Shown here: positions 4,560 to 49,485 of the stretch, piece by piece
Layout: each line of letters opens with the position of its first letter
Position numbering within the stretch: position 1 is the stretch's first letter
From: Aequorivita sp.
GTDB lineage: Bacteria; Bacteroidota; Bacteroidia; Flavobacteriales; Flavobacteriaceae
Reading direction: 5' to 3'
NCBI GenBank assembly: GCA_034675805.1
Contig: JAUCCX010000001.1
Location: 2,384,741-2,448,740, forward strand
Length of the DNA: 64,000 nucleotides
Program-made: the position numbers and the translations under genes
Notes under the pieces: model-generated
What the model saw: the letters and a program-made list of their open reading frames with translations, nothing else
What the model was told of the DNA's origin: nothing
The model's database searches: none

Positions 4560-6245
<1,686 letters not shown>

Positions 6246-28571: not shown

Positions 28572-29150
28572 TTAATTTATTTCCACGATTACAAGCCCAA
28601 AAGCTTCTGTACTATTGATAGGAATTGAAGAAACATTGAGGTTTTCAATTACCAACAAGCTTCCAGTTTCCATACTATAATTTTCATTCGCAAGATGAAC
28701 TTGGATACTACCTGATGTAGGGTATAAAAGCAAGGTTTTGCACGACTCTTTAAGTTTTAGTTTATAATTATTAATTGCCTCCACGGCTAAATGATAAAGT
28801 TCACTTTGTTGCTGGCCTGTGGTCATAACATTAAAATCCGTGCAAGTACCTATAGCGGTAGTTTTCCAATCTCCGCTAAAAGTATCTACGTCATAAGGTT
28901 TGAGAAGTTTGGTATAATGCTCCCCGTGAGTAATACTAATTTCTCCTTCCAAAATCATAAGCTTACGATGAATACTTGGCAAGTACGTAAAAGTTGATTC
29001 CGCAACTTCTACCTTAGCTGTACTTACTCTTATTTTAAAATTTCGCTCGGCATAAGAGGCGTTTTTAGGAAATATATAAAGTTGGGTACTGCTGCCACCC
29101 GACCATTGACTGGTGAGGAAATGCTGAGGGGAGAGGATTGAAATTTTCAG
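28572..29150 (-). CDS. HutD/Ves-family protein; no canonical start codon at the expected N-terminus
   Basis: The track gives only the C-terminal 136 aa, from a TTG start. The same frame is open upstream and encodes LKISILSPQHFLTSQWSGGSSTQLYIFP..RNFKIRVSTAKV..STFTYLPSIHRKLMILEG, which matches the HutD N-terminal pattern (W.GG.T....P...F..R.S.A.v). No ATG, GTG or TTG lies between the in-frame stop and this region. CTG at 29150 is the nearest candidate. Confidence 0.6.
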   Translation of the reverse strand: MKISILSPQHFLTSQWSGGSSTQLYIFPKNASYAERNFKIRVSTAKVEVAESTFTYLPSIHRKLMILEGEISITHGEHYTKLLKPYDVDTFSGDWKTTAIGTCTDFNVMTTGQQQSELYHLAVEAINNYKLKLKESCKTLLLYPTSGSIQVHLANENYSMETGSLLVIENLNVSSIPINSTEAFGLVIVEIN

Positions 29151-29417
29151 AAGTTGAAAAGTTTTAGGTTTAACGTATTTGTAGTGCTGAAATGAAACAA
29201 GAGGTATTGGGCTTTGTTGCGTATTATTTTTTATTTTCTAATATAAATATATTATAAATAGTCGTAAGGATTCTTTTCACGAGGCTAAATTTGATCAATT
29301 TTAATGAAGAAACTATTAGAATAAATGACTCTGTGGTTCTTGAAGAGTTACTTTTTCTACTGAAGAAATCTTAAATCGCCTTCAGGGTCTAAAACAAATA
29401 ATGAATATGGAGAGGTA

Positions 29418-29446
29418 AGTTGCAAACTGTTGCAACTGTGTTTTTT
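29418..29446 (+). terminator. Orphan intrinsic terminator (no annotated + strand gene upstream)
   Basis: AGTTGCAA-ACTG-TTGCAACT forms an 8-bp perfect stem, followed by GTG and TTTTTT. Confidence 0.5.
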
Positions 29447-29577
29447 ATTTCTTGTGAATCAGTCAGCAGTGATATTTTGACATCTTCTATCTTATTGACC
29501 TCGCATAGATACTATCATTACTTCTATTTAATAATTGAAAACATTTCTCATTAATTAGGATTTCTGAAATACTAATT

Positions 29578-29621
29578 AAGATAGTAGGCTAATGCAATAA
29601 TGATCATTAGCCTACTATCTT
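29578..29621. repeat. 17-bp perfect inverted repeat (hairpin) downstream of the 29654 gene
   Basis: The sequence is AAGATAGTAGGCTAATG-(10 nt)-CATTAGCCTACTATCTT. There is no T-run on the minus-strand 3' side. An A-run follows it on the + strand. Confidence 0.85.
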
Positions 29622-29653
29622 AAACGGTAAAACAAGAAAAAAAAATTAAGTAA

Positions 29654-30133
29654 CTACCTATTGTCCATTTCTCCAATCACGGGAATATTCTCTAAGATTG
29701 TGGTTCTTAATTTACTCAGTATATAACCTTCGATTTGGTAAAATTGGGCAGCCGTTTTTACATCGACCTTTTTCTTTATTTTTCTGGCATAGGTACCGAT
29801 CAGCCTGTCTGTATTGACTTGGAGCTGCATCATTTCGTTGAGGATATCTCCGGTCGCAGCATCATCTAAGGAGTCATACCCATTGGCATAAGAGTTTAAT
29901 AATGCCAAGCGTCTTTTACCTAGATCTTTGCGTTTAATTTCGTATTCATCATAAATTGTCCAAAAGGCATCTTTTTTAACTCCATCAAGTTGAATAAATT
30001 CAGCAACCATGGCTTTCTTTTCCATACCAAATACAGATTGCATTAAATCGATTTCTTCTTTATTGCTTTGAGCAAATACAGTAGAAGATAGCGTAACTAA
30101 GGCTAGAGTAAGTGTAAAAATTAATTTTTTCAT
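29654..30133 (-). CDS. Exported 159-aa helical protein, family unknown (paralog of 42498..42977)
   Basis: It has a signal peptide (..STVFAQ). It aligns end-to-end by eye with the 42498 product (..SVFGMEKKA.VA.FI......FW..YDEYE.KRK.LGK.RL.LLN.Y...AAQF.QIEGY....R..I.E.IP.IGE). Confidence 0.7.
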   Translation of the reverse strand: MKKLIFTLTLALVTLSSTVFAQSNKEEIDLMQSVFGMEKKAMVAEFIQLDGVKKDAFWTIYDEYEIKRKDLGKRRLALLNSYANGYDSLDDAATGDILNEMMQLQVNTDRLIGTYARKIKKKVDVKTAAQFYQIEGYILSKLRTTILENIPVIGEMDNR

Positions 30134-30189
30134 AAGATTATGTTATAAGTATTAGTTAATAGAATAGTGTGATTTAAGGTTAAATTATA

Positions 30190-30438
30190 TTATTGTTTAT
30201 TGTTGTCTTTCGAGATCATTTCTAGAATTTCCTCTTCCAGATTTCGTTGTACCTCTTCATACTCCTCAATCTCCGCAGTATGTTTATTCGGTGTGTTTCT
30301 CATATCCAGAATCATTGAAGAACATAGAATGTGATCTAAACACAGATCTCTGAAATTTTCATCGGTTTGAAAAAGAAAATCAATCTTCTCTTCATAATCC
30401 GGAAATATTCTAACGATAGAAACGATTTTATTTAGCAT
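30190..30438 (-). CDS. Small cytoplasmic protein 'A' (82 aa), unknown family; one of three paralogs
   Basis: The product starts MLNKIVSIVRIFPDYEEKIDFLFQTDENFRDLCLDHILC and has an acidic helical C-terminus. It has no signal peptide. Box A lies 53 nt upstream. Confidence 0.75.
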   Translation of the reverse strand: MLNKIVSIVRIFPDYEEKIDFLFQTDENFRDLCLDHILCSSMILDMRNTPNKHTAEIEEYEEVQRNLEEEILEMISKDNNKQ

Positions 30439-30490
30439 TGAATGTCAGCCGGATTTTAATTATTCATGTAAATGTATATCAGCCTGATCA

Positions 30491-30526
30491 AAATTGTAAG
30501 TGTTACACGGTTACTTAACGGTTAAA
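30491..30526 (-). promoter_or_regulatory. Box A: conserved operator/promoter element
   Basis: The minus strand reads TTTAACCGTTAAGTAACCGTGTAACACTTACAATTT. It contains the direct repeat AACCGT-N5-AACCGT. The gene-proximal edge is 53 nt from the ATG at 30438. Confidence 0.7.
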
Positions 30527-30591
30527 GGGATGTGTATTTATTTGTTTATCAACCCTATAACGAAGCTTGTGAAATTTTAGAAGTTGGGATT

Positions 30592-31734
30592 TTAAAATGC
30601 TTCCGCGAAACTTATATAAGTTCCGTGAATACCACCTCTCCCAAAGCCAAAATCAAGACGTAGGTTTATTTTATTTTTGCTATCCACTTTCACTCTTAAG
30701 CCAGCTCCATAAGATGGCCAAAATCCATCGAAGGACAATTTATCATAAGATGGTGCTACCCTACCTGTTCCTACCCATCCTACTACTCCAAAAATATTCC
30801 ATACTGGCATTCTATATTCAAGCTGGGTATCTACAAGTACTTTATCTCGGAGTGCGCCTTCGTAATATCCTCTCATTTTATTTGCCCCACCAAGTAGCGC
30901 CAAATTATAAAAGGGAGCATCACCACCTAAAGATGTTGTGGTAGCTTGAAGGGCGATAACATGATTCAGCCAAGGATTAAAATATTTTCGCACATCCAAT
31001 TCAAACCTTGTGTATTGATAAGCGCTACCTAATGATTTTTCGTTGAAAATAAATTGCGCGGAAGCAAAAGCTCCATTAAATGGATTATAACGGTTATCAC
31101 GGCTATCAAATTCCAAAGAAAATCCCAAGCCGAAATTAGTTCCTCCGTTTAGTCCTGTTACTTGATCTTTTACTAAGAAACTGGTTGAGTCTGCTTCAAC
31201 TTTAATATAATCTGCAATATCAAGGATGGCACCTACATACATATTTTTATGAACGCGGATCATAGGATTAGTTTTAAAGCGAATTTGCTGTGTTGAAATT
31301 TCCTCTACATCTTCAATAGAAACACCATTCCCTATGCCGAAAATATATTCAGGAACTTCTCTATAGCTGAAAAAACTGATGATTATATATTTGTTTTCCT
31401 TCAGAATTAAATCGTTAGCCACTACAGCATTTATTCTTCCTTTTGAAGAAAAGGAAAGAAGTTCTGATATTTTAGATGGTTTGCTAATTGTATCCTTTTT
31501 TACGGGATGGAAGGCATTGAATTTGGCCAAACCCAAAACATTACCCGCCTCAGAGGAATAACTAACAATGGGAACAGGTATTACTTTGAATAGTTTCTCC
31601 GCTTTTTTATTGAATTTATCAAATTTGGATAGGCTATCCTCAGGCTTTTCGGGAGTGTCGGTTTGGGCTAGAATTCCGTTAATGCAAAGTATCAACAAAA
31701 TACAATAGCCAACAAATATTTTTAGAAACGTCAT
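30592..31734 (-). CDS. Omp85/BamA-family outer-membrane beta-barrel without POTRA domains
   Basis: It has a signal peptide (..INGILAQ). The C-terminal barrel motifs are ..LLGGANKMRGYYEGALRDK.. and the terminal ..GIHGTYISFAEAF. It is a paralog of 48361..49485. Confidence 0.75.
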   Translation of the reverse strand: MTFLKIFVGYCILLILCINGILAQTDTPEKPEDSLSKFDKFNKKAEKLFKVIPVPIVSYSSEAGNVLGLAKFNAFHPVKKDTISKPSKISELLSFSSKGRINAVVANDLILKENKYIIISFFSYREVPEYIFGIGNGVSIEDVEEISTQQIRFKTNPMIRVHKNMYVGAILDIADYIKVEADSTSFLVKDQVTGLNGGTNFGLGFSLEFDSRDNRYNPFNGAFASAQFIFNEKSLGSAYQYTRFELDVRKYFNPWLNHVIALQATTTSLGGDAPFYNLALLGGANKMRGYYEGALRDKVLVDTQLEYRMPVWNIFGVVGWVGTGRVAPSYDKLSFDGFWPSYGAGLRVKVDSKNKINLRLDFGFGRGGIHGTYISFAEAF

Positions 31735-31790
31735 AAAGTAGACTTGTTAGTTTGATTGTTGGTAGCAAACCATTTTTTCTGCTATAATGA

Positions 31791-32039
31791 TTATGAATAA
31801 TTGTTAACTTTCAATATTATTTGCAAGATTTCCTGTTCCAAATCTTTTTGTATCATTTCATACTCCTCAATTTCCACAGTATTTTCAGCTAGTTCTTTTT
31901 TCATTTTCAGTACCATGGCTGCACATAAAATATGGTCTAAACATAGATCACGGAAATTTTCATCGGATAGGAATAGAAAATCAATCTTCTTCTCAAAACC
32001 CGGAAATATCCGAACAATAGAAACGATTTTATTATGCAT
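31791..32039 (-). CDS. Small cytoplasmic protein 'B' (82 aa), paralog of A and C
   Basis: The product starts MHNKIVSIVRIFPGFEKKIDFLFLSDENFRDLCLDHILC. Box B lies 53 nt upstream. Confidence 0.75.
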   Translation of the reverse strand: MHNKIVSIVRIFPGFEKKIDFLFLSDENFRDLCLDHILCAAMVLKMKKELAENTVEIEEYEMIQKDLEQEILQIILKVNNYS

Positions 32040-32091
32040 AGGAATTCAACCGAATTTTGATTGGTGATGTAAATTTATAACAGACTAATCT

Positions 32092-32127
32092 AAATTGTAA
32101 GTGAAATACGGTTACTTAACGGTTAAA
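32092..32127 (-). promoter_or_regulatory. Box B: conserved operator/promoter element
   Basis: The minus strand reads TTTAACCGTTAAGTAACCGTATTTCACTTACAATTT. It is identical to box D over its first 32 nt. Confidence 0.7.
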
Positions 32128-32235
32128 AGAAGTGTGAACCCACAATAAACACAGCCCTTGGAGTGAGGCCTGTATGATTTTAGAAGATAGGGTTTTAAGG
32201 ATTTTCTATTTCAAATTATTCTTATGAAAGAAGAT

Positions 32236-33897
32236 TTAAGCTATACTAAGTCCAGCTTTTTTCACCCCTTCAATAATTTCTCCAATCAAAGGTTTATCAA
32301 GCAGAAATGAATCTAAGGTAGCATAAAGAGTACTCATAATCTTTGAATACTTTTCATTTAATAGTCTTACATCGTCTTGTGCCTCATCTTCTTTACCGAG
32401 TTGGCCTTTGGCGGCTGCTTTTGTCAAGGGATCGAGAAAGACATCTACGGTTTCTATTTTATTGGCATATATAAGAGCTTTATCGTATTGTTTCTTTTGG
32501 TAATGAACTAAGAAAAAACCAAAATAAAACCACCAGGGACAATGCGGATTCAGATCTAAAGATTGGGTAAGCAATACCTCAGCACGATCAAATTCTCCAG
32601 CGCAGGCCAAATTAAATCCAATACCACCCATTAAAGAAACAGAACCTGGGTTTAAGGACAGTGCATATTCCAATGCCTTGACTGCTTCGTTTTTGTTTTG
32701 CAAATAAACATTCAACCAGCCATATTCTTGATTTGCATGTTGGCACTGCGGATCTATCCTCAATGCTTTTTTGGTGAGTTCAAGAGCTATCTTTAAAGGG
32801 TCATTTACTGTTGGGTAGCCGAGCGAATGGGCCAGTACATATAGCTCTGCCAACATAGCCAGTCCTGTTGGATAATCTGGATCATGGCGTATTGCATTTT
32901 CTAGCGCCTCCCGGGTTTTTAAATAGGTCTCCTTCGAGTAGTTCATATGGAAATAGTAGTTCCAAAAGGTAGCATCAAAAGCTTCCATACTTGAAGCGAG
33001 TGGACGATTGGATCTAGAGTTATCTTGAATAATACATCCGTAGTATCCTCCTAACACTGAAAAAATATTTTCAACGATCTGATCTTGGATAGTTATTAGG
33101 TTTTCAAAATTTAGGGGATGATTGTATGTTTTGGACCAAACTTGCATCCCATTCACCGTTTTTACCATCTCTACATTCACCCGGATATCGCGAGATGAAC
33201 GTTTTACAGATCCGGTTATAATGTAATGCACCCCTAAATCGGAACCTATAATTCGGATATCTTCAGGATTAGTAGCGTACTTACGTGTGGAATGATGAGC
33301 AACCACGTCAATATCCTGAGACCTACTGAAGAGCCGAGTAAGTTCCTCCCCAAATCCGTCTACAAAAAACTGATACTCCCCGCCCTGCCATAAGTTGCGA
33401 AATGGAAGTACCGCCAAGGTGATCTTTGAACGCGAAAACACAACCGAATTATTATCATCGGTCTTTGTTGTAGTCTTTGTGTTTGTATTTTTCTCAGACT
33501 CTTCCTTTACAATTTCCTTTGTCTTATTGATTAAATGCGGTCGAAACATTGGCACATACGTGCCTTTAACAACCTCAATCTTTATGGTGTCTGTAATTCC
33601 TATACCCATGTAATATTCGTTCAAAAGTCTCCTTAGTCTGCCGGCATGAATACGAACAATAGCGTCTATTTGTGGATTAAAGTCATCGGGTTTTCCCAAA
33701 GCACTTACGGCAATGGTATATTCCTTTAAGCCTTCGGTGTTGCCCTCTAGGGTTTCTTCAACAATAAACTTTAGAAAATTTGATAGTACAGAAGAACGGG
33801 AAAACATATCACTAGAAAGAATTCGATCCAGTTCATCTTGGATCTCCTTTTTTGAGAAATCGGGTAATATGCATTTATCTGATGAGTCGAGCGACAT
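32236..33897 (-). CDS. Multidomain regulator 1: conserved N-terminal (putative DNA-binding) domain + TolB_N-like domain + C-terminal TPR
   Basis: The N-terminus is ..ELDRILSSDMFSRSSVLSNFLKFIVEETLEGNTEGLKEYTIAV..DFNPQIDAIVRIHAGRLRRLLNEYY. The middle is ..TLAVLPFRNL...FFVDGFGEELTRLFS...GVHYIITGSVKRS..IRVNV (TolB_N-like). The C-terminus has several TPR-like repeats. I see no TM segment. Confidence 0.7.
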   Translation of the reverse strand: MSLDSSDKCILPDFSKKEIQDELDRILSSDMFSRSSVLSNFLKFIVEETLEGNTEGLKEYTIAVSALGKPDDFNPQIDAIVRIHAGRLRRLLNEYYMGIGITDTIKIEVVKGTYVPMFRPHLINKTKEIVKEESEKNTNTKTTTKTDDNNSVVFSRSKITLAVLPFRNLWQGGEYQFFVDGFGEELTRLFSRSQDIDVVAHHSTRKYATNPEDIRIIGSDLGVHYIITGSVKRSSRDIRVNVEMVKTVNGMQVWSKTYNHPLNFENLITIQDQIVENIFSVLGGYYGCIIQDNSRSNRPLASSMEAFDATFWNYYFHMNYSKETYLKTREALENAIRHDPDYPTGLAMLAELYVLAHSLGYPTVNDPLKIALELTKKALRIDPQCQHANQEYGWLNVYLQNKNEAVKALEYALSLNPGSVSLMGGIGFNLACAGEFDRAEVLLTQSLDLNPHCPWWFYFGFFLVHYQKKQYDKALIYANKIETVDVFLDPLTKAAAKGQLGKEDEAQDDVRLLNEKYSKIMSTLYATLDSFLLDKPLIGEIIEGVKKAGLSIA

Positions 33898-34425
33898 TTA
33901 GAGTTTATAAACTGATTAACAATGTATTGATGTTTAATATTTTATACTAAAAACAAGACATTCACAATAATCAATTCACACCCTACATTTTGATTTTTCC
34001 TGAGCCGTCTCACTTGGGAGAACGAAAATATGAAAAGAGAATAGAATAATCTAGCGTTCAATGAGTAATATTTAACATAAATTATCTATCAAATATAGTT
34101 AAAATTGTTAAAAAAATATTTCTATTAATTTAACTAAGCCATATATCATTGGCTTTGAGAACCGATGATAAACTAGTAGAAGATAAAAATCGGAGTTTGC
34201 CTATTCTGGTTGGATCGTTGAGCAATAGGGTCTATGCAATACTAAGCTTAGGTCTCATCTCACAAAATGGAGGCTACCGTTATTTATTTGTTAGCATAAT
34301 AAAATAGAAAAGGGATGAAAGTTGAAAATTCTGTTTTTATACGTAATTGCAAAAAGAACAAGCAAATGCAATAAATAGATTTAAGGCTTTCTTGTTATAT
34401 ATTTCAAGCTTTTAATAATTGATTA

Positions 34426-35448
34426 TCAATTATCAAAAGGAAATATTTTCAGCCAATCATTCTTCATACTAACTACATTCCAGTTACCTTCTTTTGCTGC
34501 ATTTAGCGAAGCATTATCCTTTTCGGCGTAAGCATATTCACGCTCTTCATCATCGTGGTTAATCAACAATTGAAAATTGGGCAATGGATTTGTTTGACTA
34601 AAAGAGAGTTGACCTATATCTCCCCCGCTTCTAACGTTTCCGCCAACAAATATTGGAATACGACCAATTTGTTGTTGAATAGCAATGGGCTTAAGTTCCT
34701 TATCGCACATAAATAAATTTTCATGGCCTTTCATAACCTTCCATGAACCATCCTCCATCTTACTATAGGTATTTAAAGCAAAACTCCCGATGGTATTCTC
34801 TGGAACTATACCGTAAGCAGACGTACCTATTACTCGCATAAAATCCGTTCCTCCACCGGAACATAAATATGTTTTAAAATCATTCTCACGCAGGTATTGC
34901 AAAAGCTCCAGCATGGGTTGATAAATTGTTTCAGAATATTTTTTATTAAACTTTGAATGCCGAGTATCTTTAAAAAATTCTTCAACGTCCTTATTAAATT
35001 GTTGAATAGGCATCCCAGTGGAGGTTACAACAAATAGTTTCATCAACTCTCTTCCGTGGTTATTCATTAAATCATCTACTAAGAAACTTTTATCGCCGTC
35101 GAGAATTGCCTTATACGGCAATTGATCTTTCCATTCGGGATGTTCATGAGCCATTTTTTTTATTTGATAAACAACGAATTCCAACTGAACTACAGGTTGC
35201 TCGCACCACAAAGTACCATCATTATCAAAAGTAGCTATGCGCTCTTCTGGGTTTACATAATTGGCTCCACCTTTTTGGGTAACTTGATTCACAAAATCAA
35301 TAATATCCGTTTTATTTGGGCCGTCTTTCCAGGATGGTAAAGGATTCAATGAAACAGCTTTGTCGTTAGTTTCTTGTTTTGGATTTGGCTGGTTACAGCC
35401 TGAAATCACTACCAATAAAATACTAGTTAAGAGTAAAAAATTTTTCAT
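34426..35448 (-). CDS. HAD-superfamily hydrolase-like lipoprotein (putative periplasmic phosphatase)
   Basis: It has the lipobox VVISGCNQ and the HAD motif I, ATFDNDGTLW. Later GGN..SGGDIGQL could be motif IV-like. Confidence 0.55.
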   Translation of the reverse strand: MKNFLLLTSILLVVISGCNQPNPKQETNDKAVSLNPLPSWKDGPNKTDIIDFVNQVTQKGGANYVNPEERIATFDNDGTLWCEQPVVQLEFVVYQIKKMAHEHPEWKDQLPYKAILDGDKSFLVDDLMNNHGRELMKLFVVTSTGMPIQQFNKDVEEFFKDTRHSKFNKKYSETIYQPMLELLQYLRENDFKTYLCSGGGTDFMRVIGTSAYGIVPENTIGSFALNTYSKMEDGSWKVMKGHENLFMCDKELKPIAIQQQIGRIPIFVGGNVRSGGDIGQLSFSQTNPLPNFQLLINHDDEEREYAYAEKDNASLNAAKEGNWNVVSMKNDWLKIFPFDN

Positions 35449-35501
35449 TTTAATAATTTTTAAATTTTTATAATATAAAACGGATTAAATTATAGTTAAG
35501 G

Positions 35502-35744
35502 TCAATTCTCGTTCTTCATAATTCTTTGGAGAATTTCTTCCTCCAAATTTCTTTGTAAGTCTTCATATTCCATAAGTTTCGTATCATTTTTAAGTGCATC
35601 ATTTTTCATTTCCAGTGCCATAGATGCACATAAAATGTAATCTAAACATAGATCCCTAAAATTTTCATCAGTTTGAAATAGAAAACCAATCTTCTCCTCA
35701 AAATCTGGAAATATTTGAATAATAGAAATTATTTTAGTATTCAT
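35502..35744 (-). CDS. Small cytoplasmic protein 'C' (80 aa), paralog of A and B
   Basis: The product starts MNTKIISIIQIFPDFEEKIGFLFQTDENFRDLCLDYILC. I chose the start at 35744, not the track's 35765. That choice aligns with A and B and reproduces the 53-nt box-to-ATG spacing. Confidence 0.7.
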   Translation of the reverse strand: MNTKIISIIQIFPDFEEKIGFLFQTDENFRDLCLDYILCASMALEMKNDALKNDTKLMEYEDLQRNLEEEILQRIMKNEN

Positions 35745-35796
35745 AGGAAGTAATCCAAATTTCATTTAATAGTATAAATGTAAATCAGACTAATCC

Positions 35797-35832
35797 AAAT
35801 TGTAAGTATTACACGGTTACTTAACGGTTAAA
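35797..35832 (-). promoter_or_regulatory. Box C: conserved operator/promoter element
   Basis: The minus strand reads TTTAACCGTTAAGTAACCGTGTAATACTTACAATTT. Confidence 0.7.
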
Positions 35833-35850
35833 AGTGAGGTGAATTTATAT

Positions 35851-35876
35851 AAAAACAGCCCTTATAATCAGGGCTA
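35851..35876 (-). terminator. Candidate terminator after regulator 2
   Basis: On the minus strand, AGCCCT-(7 nt)-AGGGCT is followed by GTTTTT. It separates regulator 2 from box C. Confidence 0.4.
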
Positions 35877-35940
35877 TATAGTTTTTGATAAGAGAATCCA
35901 AAGTTTGTTTATTCTATTTTCAAGCGCTAAAAAAATTGAT

Positions 35941-37599
35941 TTAGGAAATAGTAACTCCCGCTTTTTTTGCGCCTTCAATAATTTCGGAAATTAAAGACTT
36001 ATCTAGAATAAAAGTGCCAAGGGAAGCTTCAAGATTACCCATAATTTCTGAAAAATCTTCGTTCAACCGTCGTACATTCGCTTGAGCTTCCGATACCAAT
36101 CCCAATTTCCCAAAAGCTGCAGCTTTAAATAAAGGATCCAGGAAGACATCTTCGGAAGCATTAAACTTTTGGGCATACATCAAAGCTTTTTTATACTTTC
36201 CACTCTGATAATAAATAAAGAATAAAGCCTCGTAATACCAATAAGGACAATATGGATTTAAATCCAATGACCTGTGCAGCAAAACTTGCGCACGCTTATA
36301 CTCCCCCAAACATGCAAAGCCAAAACCCAGTTGACCATCCACCGAAGCCGAATTATGGCCCAAGGTTTTACTATACTCAAATGCTTTAATTGATTCCTCC
36401 TTATCTCCCAAGTAGATGTTTGCCCAGCCATATATTATGTGGGCGTATTGTGAGAATGGAGCTAGTTTTATCGCTTTTTTGATTAACTTAATGGCTTCAT
36501 TAATGGGATCTGCTATATTTGGATATCCAAGCGAGTGTGTAAATAAATAGGTATCTCCCAAGATAACCAGGCACATTGCGTTATTCGGATCACTTTGAAG
36601 TACCTTTTCCAGAGCCTTTCTACTTTTTACACAGGCCTCCATAGAATGTGTTTTTTGTGCGTAATAATTCCACAAAATAGCATCAAAAGATTGGATATCC
36701 TGCTTCATTTCAGACTCCACTAACTTCATTGTATCTCTAACTAAAAATCCATATTGGCCACTTAAAATTGAAAAAACATCATGGTCAATTTGATCCTGAA
36801 TATCAATTATTTCATCTTTTTCTAGATCGTGCGTATAATTCTTAGACCAAATTTGAATACTATTCACGGTTTCAATCAATACAACATTTACTCTAATATC
36901 TTTATTGGAGCGTTTTACGGAGCCCGTTATAACGTAATGAACTCCTAAGTCCGCACCAATTACACGGATATCTTCATTAATAGTGGCGTACTTTAAAGAA
37001 GAAAAATGCGCAACCACGGCAATATCCTCTTCAGTACTAAAGATCCTTGTAAGTTCTTCCCCAAATCCATCAACAAAAAATTGATATTCTCCATTGGGGC
37101 ATAAATTTCGAAATGGAAGGACCGCTAAGGTTAGTTTTGATCGGGAATATACCGTTGGCTTATCCTCAGAACCTGGTGCTTCCTTGGTTTCAAGTTTTAT
37201 CTTAACGGGAGTTTTCACTTCTAATTGCTGTGTAGATTGTGTGCGAAATGCTGGGACATACGTACCCTTAACCACTTCAATCTTTATAGAATTATTGAGC
37301 CCAGCTCCCATATAATACTCGTTTAACAACCTTCTTAATCTACCAGCATGAATACGGACAATAGCATCTATTTGCGGGTTAAAATCATCAGATTTTCCCA
37401 AGGCATTTACGGCAATTATATATTCCTTAAGTCCTTCAGTTTTACCTTCTACAGTTTCTTCTACAATGAACTTCAGAAAATTAGTTAAAACGGAAGATCT
37501 GGAAAAAATATCACTAGCTAAGATTCGATCCAATTCATCTAATACCTCTTTTTTGGAGAATTCGGGAAAAACACGTTTTGATGATGGGTCAGGCTGCAT
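35941..37599 (-). CDS. Multidomain regulator 2 (paralog of regulator 1)
   Basis: The domain order matches regulator 1. A 99-residue N-terminal stretch differs from regulator 1 at 14 positions by my count. The TPR region is much more diverged. Confidence 0.7.
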   Translation of the reverse strand: MQPDPSSKRVFPEFSKKEVLDELDRILASDIFSRSSVLTNFLKFIVEETVEGKTEGLKEYIIAVNALGKSDDFNPQIDAIVRIHAGRLRRLLNEYYMGAGLNNSIKIEVVKGTYVPAFRTQSTQQLEVKTPVKIKLETKEAPGSEDKPTVYSRSKLTLAVLPFRNLCPNGEYQFFVDGFGEELTRIFSTEEDIAVVAHFSSLKYATINEDIRVIGADLGVHYVITGSVKRSNKDIRVNVVLIETVNSIQIWSKNYTHDLEKDEIIDIQDQIDHDVFSILSGQYGFLVRDTMKLVESEMKQDIQSFDAILWNYYAQKTHSMEACVKSRKALEKVLQSDPNNAMCLVILGDTYLFTHSLGYPNIADPINEAIKLIKKAIKLAPFSQYAHIIYGWANIYLGDKEESIKAFEYSKTLGHNSASVDGQLGFGFACLGEYKRAQVLLHRSLDLNPYCPYWYYEALFFIYYQSGKYKKALMYAQKFNASEDVFLDPLFKAAAFGKLGLVSEAQANVRRLNEDFSEIMGNLEASLGTFILDKSLISEIIEGAKKAGVTIS

Positions 37600-37869
37600 T
37601 GAATGTTGATATGTAAATTAGTATTGTACTGATATATAGGATGGTAAACTAAAGATAAGACTTACAGAATAACCAATTCACATTCTCCAATTTTATTTTC
37701 CAAGAAGTGTCTCTATTAGAAAGATAGAAGTTTGTTAAGGCAATCAGCCAATGCTAAAGTTCAATATGTTTTGTTAAAATTCTATCTCTCAAATATAGTT
37801 AAAATTATCAAAGGTATTTTTTGTTTTTTAGTCGGAAAAGGCACTGTTTACAAAGGTTTTACAATTTGG

Positions 37870-37901
37870 TTTAACCGTTAAGTAACCGTATTTCACTTAC
37901 A
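37870..37901 (+). promoter_or_regulatory. Box D: conserved operator/promoter element heading the + strand gene array
   Basis: The + strand reads TTTAACCGTTAAGTAACCGTATTTCACTTACA. It lies in the divergent region between regulator 2 (start 37599) and the DUF1254/DUF1214 gene (start 38112). Confidence 0.65.
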
Positions 37902-38111
37902 TGGTGAATAGTATGTCCTTATTTTTGATTGTGATTATTTGTGTTCTGACGGGATATTCAATTAATAAATTGAATAAATATTTATCAGAAAGCTCATTTA
38001 TAGAATCGAATACTAATAAACAAAATCACTAAAATTTATGTACCACAAATTACTATATACAGGAATCGTGAGCGTGTATTTCGCTCTTAAATCAACTAAA
38101 AACTATTAATT

Positions 38112-39710
38112 ATGAAATTAAATCAACTATTACCAATCGCACTTAGTGTTTTTTCTCTTTTGGCCATAAGCTGCCAGAATACCAATGAAAAACATAACAC
38201 AGTAAATGAAACTGAAGAAGTAAGCTCAATGGAATCAAATTCCATAGCATCCATTAAATCGAAATATAATACAGATGTTCCTGAAAAAATATTGACTCCC
38301 CCGATTGTAGAGACAAGAATAGGAACACTTAATTTCTTTGATGGATTGCCTTCTGACGAAACCGTCAAATTAGTGTATGATCAACTCGATTTTTCTAGAG
38401 GCGTGGAAACGTTTTTAAGTGGAATTCCGGCAACCTCTATAGAAGGTCTTCGGTTAGGTTCTGAAGATCTTGGTGCTACGAAATCCAATCAAGTTGTAAT
38501 TTTTGATGAACTTCTGGATTCAAATCCGTTATTCTTAACAGGAAACACAAGTACGGTTTATGCCAGTACGTTTTTAGATCTGGAAAAAGATGGTCCTACA
38601 GTAGTGGAAGTTCCAGCAGGATCGGGTCCTGGTACTGTAAACGATGCTTACTTCAGATTCGTTGTAGATATGGGTGCCCCTGGACCAGATAGAGGGAAAG
38701 GCGGGAAATATTTAATCTTACCTCCTGATTATGAAGGAAAAACACCAGAAGGTTATTTCGTGGCGAAATCTACGAGTTACGTCAACTGGGTAATCTTAAG
38801 AGGGTTTTTAGTAGATGGGAAACCAGAAGCATCCTCTAAAATGTATCGTGAGGGTTTAAAAGTATATGCACTTAAGGATAAGGACAATCAACCTAAAATG
38901 GAGTTTATTGATGCATCCACAAAAGCTTTTAATACCATCCACGCTAATGATTATGAGTTTTATGAAGAATTAAGTCATGTTGTAGAACGCGAACCTGTCT
39001 CCTTTTTAGACCCTGAATTACGAGGCATATTTGCCAGTATTGGAATTGAAAAAGGAAAGCCATTTGCTCCAGATGCGAGATTAGAGGGAATATTACGGGA
39101 AGCAGTTGCTGTTGGAAATGCTACAGCACGAGCTATTGTCTTTAAATCGAGAGAAAAGGAGTCTTCTATATTTGAAAAAGGACCTTGGGAATCTGGGTTT
39201 CTTGGCGGTAGTTACGAATGGATCAAAGACGAAGGAAATGGTGGTCGTTATTTAGATGCAAGAACACGATTCTTCTACATGGCCACTGTAAATACACCAG
39301 CTATGGTGTTAAAAATGATAGGCTTAGGGTCACAATATGCATTGGCACATCATGATTCTCAAGGCAACTATTTAGACGGTAATAAAAACTATACTTTAAA
39401 TATACCTGCAAATGTTCCAGCTAAAGAGTTTTGGTCAGTGGTTATGTACGACCCTCAAACGCGATCTATGTTGCAAACTGGTCAAGCGCTTCCAAGTGTG
39501 AGTAGTCAAAGAACTCCACTGGTTAAAAATGAAGATGGCTCGGTTACTCTTTATTTTGGACCAAAGAATACTGCTCCTAAAGGCAAAGAAGCCAACTGGC
39601 TGCAATCTGTATCAGGTAAAGGTTTCTTTGTACTATTCAGAATCTATGGCCCACTTGAACCTTGGTTTGACAAAACATGGCAGCCAGGAGAATTCGAATT
39701 GGTTAAATAA
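38112..39710 (+). CDS. DUF1254/DUF1214 domain lipoprotein
   Basis: It has the lipobox LLAISCQN. The DUF1254-like region is ..VNDAYFRFVVDMGAPGPDRGKGGKYLILPPDYEG.. and the DUF1214-like region is ..EFWSVVMYDPQTRSML...GFFVLFRIYGP. Confidence 0.75.
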   Translation: MKLNQLLPIALSVFSLLAISCQNTNEKHNTVNETEEVSSMESNSIASIKSKYNTDVPEKILTPPIVETRIGTLNFFDGLPSDETVKLVYDQLDFSRGVETFLSGIPATSIEGLRLGSEDLGATKSNQVVIFDELLDSNPLFLTGNTSTVYASTFLDLEKDGPTVVEVPAGSGPGTVNDAYFRFVVDMGAPGPDRGKGGKYLILPPDYEGKTPEGYFVAKSTSYVNWVILRGFLVDGKPEASSKMYREGLKVYALKDKDNQPKMEFIDASTKAFNTIHANDYEFYEELSHVVEREPVSFLDPELRGIFASIGIEKGKPFAPDARLEGILREAVAVGNATARAIVFKSREKESSIFEKGPWESGFLGGSYEWIKDEGNGGRYLDARTRFFYMATVNTPAMVLKMIGLGSQYALAHHDSQGNYLDGNKNYTLNIPANVPAKEFWSVVMYDPQTRSMLQTGQALPSVSSQRTPLVKNEDGSVTLYFGPKNTAPKGKEANWLQSVSGKGFFVLFRIYGPLEPWFDKTWQPGEFELVK

Positions 39711-41596: not shown

Positions 41597-42403
41597 ATGA
41601 AAAAAATCACACTTTTATTTACAGCCTTACTGATGGCAACTATAGGTTTCGCTCAAGAGGAACCTAAAACAACTGATGCAGATGCCTTGGCAAAGCAACT
41701 TCAAAATCCAATATCCAGTCTGATTAGTGTTCCTATTCAAGGAAACTTTGATTTTGGATTTGACCCTAGTAATGGGTCTAGAATGATTGTAAATATTCAG
41801 CCAGTAATTCCTATGAGTATTAGTGAGGATTGGAATTTAATAGCTAGGGTTATTTTACCTGTAGTTTCCCAAACTGACATTTATGGACCGAGTGGGAATC
41901 AATTTGGACTTGGGGATGTTACCATGAGTGCTTTCTTTTCTCCTAAGGCACCAACCAAAGGAGGATTAATTTGGGGTGTAGGTCCGGTTCTTTCGATTCC
42001 AACCGCTACCGACCAATTATTAGGGTCCGAGAAGTTTGGGGTTGGACCAACTGCGATTGCCTTGACACAAATAGGGAAAATAACACTGGGGGTTTTGGTA
42101 AACCAAGTATGGTCTATAGCAGGAAGCGAAGACAGAGCGGATATAAATAACACCTTTATTCAACCATTTTTTGCAAAAAACTTTAAGGGCGGTTATGCTT
42201 TAAGCTTAAATACCGAATTAAGCCAAAATTGGGAGGCAGATGCAACCTCAGGAACTATCAATCTTGTTGGTTCAAAAGTAATTAAATTAGGAAAGCAACT
42301 AACACAAGTAGCTGTTGGACCACGTATACCCTACGGAAATGGCAATAATTCAGACTGGGGATTTAGAGCCCAATTTACGCTGCTATTCCCTGCGGGGAAA
42401 TAG
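41597..42403 (+). CDS. Outer-membrane transporter-like barrel (MetA-pathway/'Phenol_MetA_deg'-like)
   Basis: It has a signal peptide (..TIGFAQE). ..LQNPISSLISVPIQGNFDFGF...IVNIQPVIPMSISEDWNLIARVILPV.. matches my memory of this family. Confidence 0.5.
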   Translation: MKKITLLFTALLMATIGFAQEEPKTTDADALAKQLQNPISSLISVPIQGNFDFGFDPSNGSRMIVNIQPVIPMSISEDWNLIARVILPVVSQTDIYGPSGNQFGLGDVTMSAFFSPKAPTKGGLIWGVGPVLSIPTATDQLLGSEKFGVGPTAIALTQIGKITLGVLVNQVWSIAGSEDRADINNTFIQPFFAKNFKGGYALSLNTELSQNWEADATSGTINLVGSKVIKLGKQLTQVAVGPRIPYGNGNNSDWGFRAQFTLLFPAGK

Positions 42404-42497: not shown

Positions 42498-42977
42498 ATG
42501 AAACGTAAAATATTAAGTATTACCGGCATCTTCTTTTTTGCATTGTTTTTTGCTCAAACCTCAAACGCTCAAACTACCAAGGAAGAAACAGATTTATATC
42601 AGTCAATTTTTGGAATGGAGAAAAAAGCTATTGTTGCCGATTTTATTGGTGTTGACAGCGGAAATCCTTTTTGGTCTCTTTATGATGAATACGAAACCAA
42701 ACGGAAAGAATTAGGAAAACAACGTTTAAGTCTATTAAATAACTATGTAGCTAATTACGACAATCTTAATGATGCCAAATATGATGAAATTGTAACTGAT
42801 ATGATCTCTCTTCAGAAAAAGACTAATAAGTTAATGGATCAATATTATAAGAAAATCAAGAAAGCTTCTGGTTCAAAAGTAGCTGCGCAGTTTTTTCAAA
42901 TAGAAGGTTATTTTCTAACTCAAATTAGAGCTACCATTTTTGAAGGAATACCATATATAGGCGAATTCGGTAATTAA
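42498..42977 (+). CDS. Exported 159-aa helical protein (paralog of 29654..30133)
   Basis: It has a signal peptide (..TSNAQ). See the evidence for 29654..30133. Confidence 0.7.
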   Translation: MKRKILSITGIFFFALFFAQTSNAQTTKEETDLYQSIFGMEKKAIVADFIGVDSGNPFWSLYDEYETKRKELGKQRLSLLNNYVANYDNLNDAKYDEIVTDMISLQKKTNKLMDQYYKKIKKASGSKVAAQFFQIEGYFLTQIRATIFEGIPYIGEFGN

Positions 42978-48360: not shown

Positions 48361-49485
48361 ATAATAATAAAAAAGTTAATTCTGATATTATTAATTGCCC
48401 TTCCCTCTCAAGGTTTTCCCCAGGACGGGAAGAATGTTATTGACTCTATTGTAGTACGCAGTAAAGATATCACAACAGTTAAAAAACTGACTTTTAATGG
48501 ATATCCTTATGCGTTTTACACTCCTGAAACACAAGCTGCAATTGGTGCTGGGGGTATCTTTCTATTTTACACAAAAAATAAAATAGATGGGTTAAGACCT
48601 TCAAAAGTTGGTTTTGGAGCTTTTTATACAACCAATAAGCAATACAAATTTTCGGTGAATCCAAGTATTTATTTTAACTCCAATAAGCTTGTCGTTCAAA
48701 TGCCTGCATCCTTTAGCTATACTTTAGATAAATTTTGGGGAATAGGTAATGAAACTGTAGAAACTGGAACGGAAGATTATTTTAGAGAAGATTTTGACGT
48801 TCAATTGGAAGTACAAGTGCCTCCATTGTTATTTTTTGCAGATCGTTCGAGCTTTATCTTGGACTACCAACACACTAGCATAGTTGACGTGCAGGATAAC
48901 GAGTATCTAATAGATGAAACAGTTACTGGGTATCAAGGTGGGGATCTTTTTGGCGTTGGTTTTGGTTTAGTCTGGGACAGGCGCGATAACTTGTTTTATC
49001 CTACTTCTGGACATTATCAATTTATAAAATTTATAGTTTATACTCAACCCAGTGATTATACATATACCACTTTTGAACTAGATGTACGATATTATAAAAA
49101 GTTATTTAAAAACTCTGTTTTAGCGACAAATCTCTATTTAAAAAATGTAAGCGGCAATGCACCTTTTTACGAATTACCTGCTTTAGGTGGACCTCAACGA
49201 ATGAGAGGCTATTTTCAAGGGCGATACCGAGACAACAACTATTTCACCATACAAACTGAGTACCGTCAGTATTTCTGGAAACGATTTGGTTTTGTGGCAT
49301 TTGGAGGTTTTGGGGATGTAAGTGATGAAATTACAAGTGTAAATCTAAAAGAATTGAAATATAGTTTTGGAGGTGGACTTCGTTATCTTTTCAACAAAAA
49401 GGAACACGTTAATCTAAGAATGGATATTGGTATTGGAGCCGATGGGAATACCGGAATTTATTTTGGTATTGAGGAAGCATTTTAA
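48361..49485 (+). CDS. Omp85/BamA-family barrel without POTRA (paralog of 30592..31734); start codon non-canonical or unresolved
   Basis: The track ORF (48655, GTG) lacks the N-terminus. The same frame is open from 48361 and encodes IIIKKLILILLIALPSQGFPQD.. (signal-peptide-like), followed by a region homologous to the 30592 product. No ATG, GTG or TTG is present; only ATA, ATT and CTG are available. The C-terminus is ..GIYFGIEEAF. Confidence 0.6.
   Translation: MIIKKLILILLIALPSQGFPQDGKNVIDSIVVRSKDITTVKKLTFNGYPYAFYTPETQAAIGAGGIFLFYTKNKIDGLRPSKVGFGAFYTTNKQYKFSVNPSIYFNSNKLVVQMPASFSYTLDKFWGIGNETVETGTEDYFREDFDVQLEVQVPPLLFFADRSSFILDYQHTSIVDVQDNEYLIDETVTGYQGGDLFGVGFGLVWDRRDNLFYPTSGHYQFIKFIVYTQPSDYTYTTFELDVRYYKKLFKNSVLATNLYLKNVSGNAPFYELPALGGPQRMRGYFQGRYRDNNYFTIQTEYRQYFWKRFGFVAFGGFGDVSDEITSVNLKELKYSFGGGLRYLFNKKEHVNLRMDIGIGADGNTGIYFGIEEAF

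Follow-up and report, generated by a model that had tools for sequence, protein, structure and literature searches.

A 64,000-nucleotide stretch of Aequorivita sp. DNA (assembly GCA_034675805.1, contig JAUCCX010000001.1, positions 2,384,741 to 2,448,740), referred to here as the window, contains three genes for small paralogous proteins, A, B and C. Each of them is preceded by a copy of the same DNA element, the box, and C and B also follow genes for two putative transcriptional regulators. Sequence comparison and structure prediction indicate that the three genes are translated into acidic cytoplasmic proteins of some 80 residues, which fold as a four-helix hairpin. Since the combination of regulator, box and small gene is kept while the exported genes around it change, the small protein is probably a part of the regulatory circuit. 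Its likeliest role is that of a feedback component, and in particular that of an anti-activator acting on the N-terminal half of the regulator. The probability of this reading, which is drawn from gene linkage, is put at roughly 0.4.

The three small genes are located on the minus strand (all coordinates are those of the window, unless a locus of another genome is named):

30190..30438, minus strand: small protein A, 82 residues, predicted acidic four-helix protein (list of open reading frames (ORFs), paralogue alignment, 48-member alignment, AlphaFold2 model, ratio of nonsynonymous to synonymous substitution rates (dN/dS)).
31791..32039, minus strand: small protein B, 82 residues, paralogue of A (ORF list, alignment, dN/dS).
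35502..35744, minus strand: small protein C, 80 residues, paralogue of A and B (ORF list, alignment).

Along this strand the genes are arranged in the order regulator 2, box, C and a HAD-family protein, and then regulator 1, box, B, an Omp85-like barrel, box, A and a 159-residue exported protein (p159). The HAD-family protein, the barrel and p159 are called here the cargo of C, B and A, respectively. The paralogues can be aligned without gaps over 80-82 residues. The alignment has 42 invariant columns, which include DENFRDLCLD(H/Y)ILC and the acidic C-terminal helix EYE..Q..LE.EIL; the family signature in A reads FP...DENFRDLCxD(H/Y)xxC...EYE...LExE. The identity is 65% for A/B and A/C by pairwise alignment, and 66% and 65% for these two pairs and 59% for B/C by tblastn. 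An earlier first-pass annotation, made from the letters of the sequence, had given the same coordinates, gapless alignment, motif and missing signal peptide, and the ORF list and the alignment confirm them: all three lack a signal peptide and any hydrophobic stretch at the N-terminus. They are also acidic (isoelectric point (pI) 4.35-4.92, net charge -5 to -10). A six-frame motif scan of the whole 64-kb window found no fourth copy. The three genes are all called in the protein collection (NCBI is recorded as a source for this genome), without a name. C is on record there as an 87-residue form starting from the ATG at 35765, and the 80-residue form is not; the ATG at 35744 fits the homologues and the promoter geometry better.

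A profile built from A, B and C matches 48 proteins of 67-94 residues, with E values of 3e-44 to 6e-23 (5.8 billion proteins searched). In the alignment of this close family the invariant residues are F12, P13, I19, F29, L32, C33, C39, E59 and E70, and conservation is at least 90% in another 17 columns. The AlphaFold2 model of A, calculated with the close-family alignment, has a predicted local distance difference test score (pLDDT) of 87.8 and contains four helices, comprising residues 2-11, 13-25, 27-47 and 54-76. The first-pass annotation had made its proposal of functional proteins depend on purifying selection, and such selection is seen when 20 close-family genes are compared codon by codon (median dN 0.29, dS 1.45, dN/dS 0.19). 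Comparisons of A, B and C with one another give ratios of 0.19-0.44. In many of the pairs compared the synonymous sites are saturated.

These data bear on the idea that the small ORF is a leader or an attenuator, so that the act of its translation or the structure of its RNA matters and the protein itself has no function. The position of the ORF between promoter and cargo would suit such a role. The dN/dS of about 0.2 (with synonymous sites largely saturated), the residue pattern kept down to about 25-30% identity in the 666 representatives of the wider family described below, the confident fold prediction and the existence of stand-alone small genes without a downstream cargo do not. A scan of positions 29000-38500 against Rfam gave only chance-level matches far below the gathering scores, so that neither the box nor the leaders can be ascribed to a known RNA element. 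Because of the selection pattern, the conserved family and the confident fold, a leader-peptide or RNA-only role is very unlikely, the least probable of all the explanations considered.

Members of the close family are rare: a scan of genomes representing 185,579 species yields 17 loci, all of them in Bacteroidota (Gelidibacter, Xanthomarina, Sediminicola, Cerina, Aquaticitalea, Cryomorphaceae, Algoriphagus and Lentimicrobiaceae/Bacteroidales). Upstream DNA is available for 15 of the 17 loci of this genome scan, and in all 15 a regulator homologue (52-82% identical) ends 179-722 nucleotides upstream of the small gene on the same strand; loci found by exact protein match agree. Of the 12 unique loci of relatives with about 30-40% identity to A, 10 have a regulator homologue within 3 kb, which is mostly transcribed divergently. 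These distant loci come partly from a metagenome scan with a DNA pattern, in which 13 of 46 loci held true family members, and do not represent a census. The two exceptions are L074, which lies at a contig edge, and L011. A pairing of genes that persists at this divergence, in tandem as well as in divergent order, presumably marks a direct functional tie. The commonest gene order is a divergent sulfatase-family gene, regulator, small gene, p159 and a DUF1254/DUF1214 gene. The window has an expanded version of it, in which four boxes and three small genes accompany two regulators, and some genomes have two or three regulators with one small gene.

The two neighbouring genes that complete the unit are as follows:

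32236..33897, minus strand: putative regulator 1, 553 residues (TPR matches in Pfam, AlphaFold2 model of residues 1-150), with a terminator-like hairpin at 32153-32170.
35941..37599, minus strand: putative regulator 2, 552 residues, 57% identical to regulator 1, with a terminator-like hairpin at 35855-35877.

Regulator 1 consists of an N-terminal domain with three helices and a β-hairpin, a central region and C-terminal tetratricopeptide (TPR) repeats. The AlphaFold2 model of residues 1-150, based on an alignment of 59 sequences, has a pLDDT of 84, which exceeds 95 over residues 20-120. In this model three main helices are followed by a β-hairpin, and the nearly invariant residues V81, R82, A85, L88 and R89 are located on the third helix. 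Residues 156-487 match the HilA/EilA model (E 2.8e-8, 32.6 bits against a cut-off of 589 bits), and Pfam detects no Trans_reg_C domain in the regulators. Activators of the HilA/EilA, CadC and OmpR/PhoB types, which use tandem direct repeats over the -35 region, are a comparison for these neighbouring proteins, not for the small protein. The regulators resemble the HilA/EilA type in this sub-threshold match of the TPR-containing part and in the modeled N-terminus. They differ from the OmpR and CadC types in that no receiver domain and no membrane-spanning stretch is seen on reading the sequence, and a membrane-anchored, CadC-like regulator was dropped as a candidate for lack of a hydrophobic segment. 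It is plausible, from sequence and model, that the two neighbours are regulators.

In two of the distant loci (L010 and L030) the regulator homologue matches only residues ~14-300, so that the TPR region is missing. As the linkage persists with such homologues, the partner surface for the small protein, if there is one, is more likely to be in the N-terminal half. The first-pass annotation had suggested that the small proteins could be co-activators or anti-activators bound by the TPR domains. The tight neighbourhood with TPR regulators makes a role of this kind the best supported of its ideas, whereas the TPR-binding rationale is weakened by the TPR-less homologues. These two homologues, of 286-293 residues, comprise the N-terminal and central regions only (L010 4452-5333, minus strand; L030 7968-8828, plus strand). 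Metagenomes contain many other TPR-less regulator-like proteins of 200-263 residues, some of which are named 'TolB-like protein' by JGI, as are short homologues of the central region. The literature searched contained no functional study of TolB-like/TPR regulators.

The box, of 31 nucleotides, has an 18-mer core, TAACCGTTAAGTAACCGT, which occurs exactly four times in the window against an expectation of 0.06. Three of the copies are upstream of A, B and C, and each of them ends 68 nucleotides before the ATG. The boxes and the promoter motifs that accompany them are:

30496..30526, minus strand: box upstream of A, TTTAACCGTTAAGTAACCGTGTAACACTTAC (exact 18-mer core; same offset in 17 other genomes).
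32097..32127, minus strand: box upstream of B (exact 18-mer core, upstream alignment).
35802..35832, minus strand: box upstream of C (exact 18-mer core, upstream alignment).
37870..37900, plus strand: fourth box (18-mer core 37872-37889), located ahead of the DUF1254/DUF1214 gene, which is divergent from regulator 2.
30469..30476, minus strand: putative -7 motif of A, TACATTTA, 19 nucleotides after the box and 30 nucleotides before the ATG (read from the sequence).
32070-32077, minus strand; 35775-35782, minus strand; 37920-37927, plus strand: equivalent -7 motifs (read from the sequence).

The fixed geometry of the modules, which had been described earlier with 53 nucleotides between box and small ORF, is borne out: the 68 nucleotides measured from the end of the 18-mer in all three units are the same distance, if the box is taken to be about 15 nucleotides longer. 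When the 150 nucleotides preceding 20 small genes of the close family (those of A, B and C and 17 in other genomes) are aligned, the consensus TTTAAC(C/G)GTTAAGTAAC(C/G)GT(G/A)(T/A)AA(C/T)ACTTAC appears at one fixed position. It is followed by 18-20 variable nucleotides, TAnnTTT(G/A), about 30 nucleotides and the ATG. Promoters of Bacteroides and Flavobacterium have TTTG at -33 and TAnnTTTG at -7. We take the second motif to be the -7 element of this consensus, which places the 3' end of the box at the position expected for the -33 element. This is, so far as can be read from the sequence, the layout of an activator-dependent promoter in which an operator replaces the upstream hexamer.

The box contains TAAC-N-GT twice with a period of 11 bp and a variable central base. 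Such a direct repeat, which abuts the core promoter and recalls the tandem sites used by HilA/EilA-, CadC- and OmpR/PhoB-type activators, would suit tandem binding by a winged-helix protein. We infer that the regulator binds the box from the topology of its N-terminal domain and from the co-conservation of regulator and box, and the box is thus most likely the operator of the neighbouring regulators. Terminator-like hairpins are found after both regulator genes and none is found between a small gene and its cargo, which makes the small gene the apparent first cistron of a box-driven transcript.

Related elements of the type TTAC(C/G)GTAAGTTAC are present upstream of most of the distant family members, for example TTACGGTAAGTTACCGTAAGTTAC in L064 and L049, and TGACCGTAAGTTAC in L037, L055 and L031. 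In L011 a near-copy of the box, TTTAACGGTTATTTAACCGTTTATAACTTAC (5798-5830), is positioned at -200 of a family member that is 32% identical. This member sits behind a hybrid histidine kinase, and there is no regulator homologue within 6 kb of it.

The fourth box, together with its -7 motif, precedes the DUF1254/DUF1214 gene with a leader of about 180 nucleotides and without a gene for a small protein. A decayed small ORF at this place was considered and rejected, as tblastn finds none. A 43-residue ORF at 37901-38032 starts upstream of the -7 motif and is probably not expressed from the fourth-box promoter. In Gelidibacter (L003) the boxed DUF1254/DUF1214 gene is likewise divergent from a gene of the regulator 2 type, and the box is at 1536-1553.

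The working of the circuit can be envisaged as follows. The regulator would activate the promoter at the box, and the small gene, being the promoter-proximal core target, would be expressed whenever the regulator fires. The small protein would then feed back on the regulator, most likely by binding to its N-terminal half as an anti-activator. The two conserved cysteines of the small protein may make this feedback dependent on thiols or on a metal. The additional operons of this genome would each have brought their own copy of the small gene. If the two proteins are in contact, the sign of the effect is more likely to be negative, in view of the strong acidity of the small protein, of the many arginines in the putative recognition helix of the regulator and of an analogy to TraM. 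TraM-type anti-activators (e.g. 2q0o) are likewise small helical hairpins, and traM is activated by the very regulator that TraM inhibits. This negative-feedback wiring is used here as a working analogy; TraM and the small protein have no sequence similarity, and the partner regulator is of a different class. The pair can also be compared to the RRNPP regulators (Rap, NprR, PlcR and PrgX), in which a TPR-containing regulator lies beside a small gene. The partners of RRNPP regulators are secreted and processed peptides, whereas the small protein has no signal peptide, is predicted to be a folded domain of 80 residues, and is linked also to regulator homologues that lack TPR repeats.

Several observations weigh against the proposal of a feedback subunit. 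A regulator and its target would be just as likely to stay adjacent if the small protein did no more than serve as the main effector of the regulon. The trees of small proteins and regulators do not mirror each other: the pairwise identities correlate with r = 0.35, and C is not grouped with the small protein of the other locus of the regulator 2 type, a test judged uninformative for proteins of 80 residues. The likeness to TraM found by Foldseek is non-significant (TM score 0.53, E 6.2). The 120-residue N-terminal domain of the regulator has no sequence match in Pfam or the PDB, and Foldseek with its model returns only non-significant matches (all E>1), several of them to winged helices such as OmpR-type 3q9v (TMt 0.47), MepR and ORC. 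Finally, the proteins of the DUF465 superfamily, to which the small proteins are remotely related (see below), offer no functional precedent.

The same context evidence would also be accommodated by feedback of the opposite sign. The small protein might be a co-activator, a subunit without which the regulator could not bind or activate at the box, so that induction would reinforce itself, and the presence of one copy in each operon might serve to keep the stoichiometry. The multiplication of the small gene with the operons suits a required subunit as well as an inhibitor, and the sign of the effect is not readable from the sequence. There are, on the other hand, box-driven DUF1254/DUF1214 units without a small gene, both here and in Gelidibacter, and genomes in which two or three regulators are accompanied by one small gene; both arrangements are compatible with action in trans. 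Such a positive-feedback subunit is considered rather improbable.

Neither Pfam (at E<=1), NCBIfam nor PADLOC gives a meaningful match for A, B or C. When the 48 close-family members are compared to Pfam at E<=10, scattered sub-threshold coiled-coil matches are obtained, which are treated as noise (UBA_N4BP1_C, for example, in 19 of 48 members, best E 0.009); PF04325, the Pfam family of YdcH, is not among the 25 families shown of the 40 matched. It is also not matched by ten members of the wide family at E<=0.1, nor by A, B and C at E<=1. Among solved structures, sequence searches with the close and wide profiles find coiled-coil artefacts only, such as spike glycoprotein constructs and GCN4-like segments. 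The wide family was collected by an exhaustive hidden Markov model (HMM) search of 1.84 billion cluster representatives, 666 of which match at E<=1e-3 and 45 at E<=1e-10. Nearly all of its members have 70-130 residues; they are strongly acidic (median pI 4.6, net charge -7) and share the signature FP-x5-I-x2-L-x6-F-R-x-L-C-x-D-Y-x2-C ... E-Y ... L-E-x-E.

The label 'YdcH (DUF465 family)', given by JGI to one close member, prompted a direct comparison of the two families. An alignment of the wide family (94 sequences) matches an alignment of 20 YdcH proteins in hhalign with a probability of 94.6%, an E value of 7.2e-8 and a score of 39.7 over 69 of 74 columns. The controls, consisting of 80 column shuffles (40 per alignment) and one reversed alignment, reach a score of at most 17 and a probability of at most 5%, and the close family alone gives a probability of only 38.7%. 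Of the 20 YdcH proteins, 19 carry PF04325 in the precomputed table; all are enterobacterial, and the alignment is therefore narrow. In the resulting alignment FPDYEEKIDFLFQTDENFRDL pairs with FPEYRDLISRLKNENPRFMSL, and the FP(D/E)(Y/F) start and the helix boundaries of the two families coincide.

The best compact match of the model in Foldseek, at rank 2, is the DUF465 protein HP1242 of Helicobacter pylori (PDB 1zhc), with a TMq of 0.57, a TMt of 0.61 and a root-mean-square deviation of 2.6 Å over 62 columns, a non-significant match (E 2.6, probability 0.60); the YdcH profile matches 1zhc at E 1.3e-19. HP1242 has a three-helix, coiled-coil-like fold composed of helices 6-14, 18-38 and 43-75 (PMC3397514), to which helices 13-25, 27-47 and 54-76 of the model correspond. 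Both families consist of cytoplasmic, all-helical proteins of about 75-80 residues, in which helices 2 and 3 show the spacing I..L...(D/N)..F..L and the C-terminal helix is long and acidic/basic. In the model, the small family differs by an additional N-terminal helix. It is set apart further by a Cys-x-Asp-Tyr-x-x-Cys motif, with two near-invariant cysteines and an Asp-Tyr pair at positions where YdcH has Phe, Leu and Lys-His according to the hhalign alignment, and by the regulator that adjoins it, as no link of DUF465 to a regulator has been reported.

The small-protein family is thus, by profile comparison, a remote, cysteine-bearing branch of the DUF465 superfamily; by the Pfam criterion it lies outside PF04325. 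The first-pass annotation did not recognise the family: it indeed has no name and no Pfam or NCBIfam match, and that statement can now be refined to a remote relationship to YdcH/DUF465. ECOD curation describes DUF465 as being of unknown function and without conserved cysteines (PMC11836899), and its function is unknown also according to PMC3397514. A functional study of DUF465, YdcH or HP1242 was not found in the literature searched. The relationship therefore supplies a fold and no mechanism.

The two cysteines that distinguish this branch are both present in 82 of 94 wide-family members (C33 in 91 and C39 in 85), and D35, E59, E68 and E70 are likewise conserved. An earlier suggestion of a Cys/His-based sensor is better limited to its cysteine half, since position 36 is Tyr in 77 of the 94 members. 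In the model C33 and C39 are located on one helix (helix 3) at i and i+6, a geometry that makes a monomeric single-metal site or an intramolecular disulfide unlikely. A metal or thiol site at a dimer interface is possible. Alternatively, the cysteines may simply occupy core positions, as the aligned residues of YdcH (Phe and Leu) are hydrophobic. Natural tandem fusions of two copies (P0072, P0155 and P0183), in which C33 is kept in both halves and C39 is lost in one, argue for a dimeric or pseudo-dimeric working unit. One of them, P0155, also matches the cation-binding hemerythrin HHE domain below threshold (E 8.5e-5; score 23.5 bits, cut-off 25.3).

The conservation of the cysteines and acidic residues, the tandem fusions and the hemerythrin-like match could all be accounted for if the small protein were a cytoplasmic effector that works independently of the regulator, i.e. 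a dimeric protein of the thiol, metal-binding or Fe-S type, with a role in cofactor buffering or delivery or in redox sensing. Its adjacency to the regulator would then be explained by its being the main target. The placement of both cysteines on one helix in the model argues against a monomeric site, and YdcH is hydrophobic at both positions. No match to a known metal-binding family was obtained in Pfam, NCBIfam or PDB-sequence searches. An effector of this kind is regarded as unlikely, somewhat less so than a co-activator.

If the feedback described above does depend on the cysteines, regulator and small protein might constitute a two-part module that gates an outer-membrane and periplasmic regulon, in which the small protein switches the N-terminal half of the regulator according to its thiol or metal state. 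Such a module, previously undescribed, would be distributed over Bacteroidota and, in divergent form, over uncharacterised metagenomic lineages. This more detailed version of the proposal is doubtful, and it is put forward as such.

DUF465/YdcH proteins are widespread in bacteria (E. coli, Salmonella, Helicobacter pylori), and a structure has been solved, but the literature searched assigns them no function. With the cysteine-bearing branch, a DUF465-like group is tied here for the first time to a genomic partner that is kept across deep divergence, namely a putative regulator together with its probable operator. In kind this is not new, since the fold seems to be that of the DUF465 superfamily, and circuits of an activator and a small modulator with similar wiring are known. 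The finding consists of a rare unnamed family, a probable operator that is sharply defined and a pairing of genes that is retained as far as sequence comparison reaches. The operator can be used to map the regulon in its carriers, a compact, uncharacterised regulon of marine and sediment Bacteroidota that contains several outer-membrane barrels (including Omp85-like ones), DUF1254/DUF1214 proteins, sulfatase- and HAD-family enzymes and the 159-residue periplasmic helical protein. If the small protein is a feedback subunit, it would add a new type to the small proteins that modulate transcription factors. If both the binding and the thiol dependence are true, it would provide the first function for a DUF465-like protein and a new regulatory module. 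If it is not a feedback subunit, it would still be the best-conserved output of the system and an entry point to its physiology.

The exported proteins encoded next to the small genes and behind the fourth box are:

29654..30133, minus strand: p159, cargo of A, an exported helical protein of 159 residues with a signal peptide.
30592..31734, minus strand: Omp85-domain barrel, cargo of B, 380 residues (PF01103, E 1.6e-14), between B and the box of A.
34426..35448, minus strand: HAD-family protein, cargo of C, 340 residues (PF12710, E 2.6e-7), with a signal that ends in Cys and is read as lipoprotein-type.
38112..39710, plus strand: DUF1254/DUF1214 protein, downstream of the fourth box and recurrent in the same neighbourhood elsewhere.

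The descriptions of the three cargoes in the first-pass annotation hold, namely a 159-residue protein with a signal peptide, an Omp85 barrel and a HAD-like protein with a lipoprotein-type signal. It had also raised the possibility that each small protein acts in the cytoplasm as a chaperone or targeting factor for one particular exported protein, the product of the next gene downstream. The small gene does directly precede an exported-protein gene in three of three units, with gaps of 56, 56 and 53 nucleotides from stop codon to cargo and no terminator between them, and p159, the commonest gene in this position, is the next gene in about half of the other genomes. In several genomes, however, the next gene encodes a DUF1254/DUF1214 protein, in others an unrelated ORF, and in Gelidibacter there is no co-directional gene downstream at all. 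With the barrel and the HAD-family protein of the window, the downstream gene is thus variable, and the constant neighbour is the regulator and not any cargo. The conserved face of the small protein is, moreover, nearly identical in A, B and C in spite of their unrelated cargoes. A cargo-specific chaperone is accordingly disfavoured and has a very low probability.

All classifiable products of the neighbouring genes are of the exported or outer-membrane type (p159, Omp85-like, HAD, DUF1254/DUF1214, Gly-zipper, DUF3575 and TDE1717-like proteins and the 268-residue protein listed below), and only the small protein and the regulators lack a signal sequence among the neighbouring genes examined. 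The literature searched yielded no functional study of DUF1254/DUF1214. The run of plus-strand genes downstream of the fourth box also encodes Sel1-repeat, Gly-zipper, DUF3575 and TDE1717-like outer-membrane proteins. The run, in which no other box was found, may be one long box-driven operon or may be served by other promoters. It includes:

41597-42403, plus strand: signal-peptide protein of 268 residues, outer-membrane-like, without a Pfam or NCBIfam match.
42498-42977, plus strand: second copy of p159, 51% identical.
48655-49485, plus strand: second copy of the Omp85-like barrel, 32% identical.

The 268-residue protein seems to be another core member of the regulon. Relatives with 38-51% identity are encoded in distant loci (L031 5265-6125, L006 6296-7123, L037 2665-3438, L053 1022-1807 and L059 5253-5873).

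In Algoriphagus, Gelidibacter, Xanthomarina and a metagenome-assembled genome of Bacteroidales, a sulfatase-family gene of about 792-809 codons is divergent from the regulator. No sulfatase equivalent was identified beside the regulators of the window. The sulfatase-family genes are at the following positions:

L001, 3257-5635: sulfatase-family gene.
L003, 3537-5966: sulfatase-family gene.
L005, 3572-5950: sulfatase-family gene.
L008, 3569-5947: sulfatase-family gene.

At 28572-28982 on the minus strand of the window, an ORF of 136 residues with a TTG start matches only positions 50-168 of the 181 positions of the HutD profile (E 9e-14). Its true start may be located further upstream, or the gene may be truncated.

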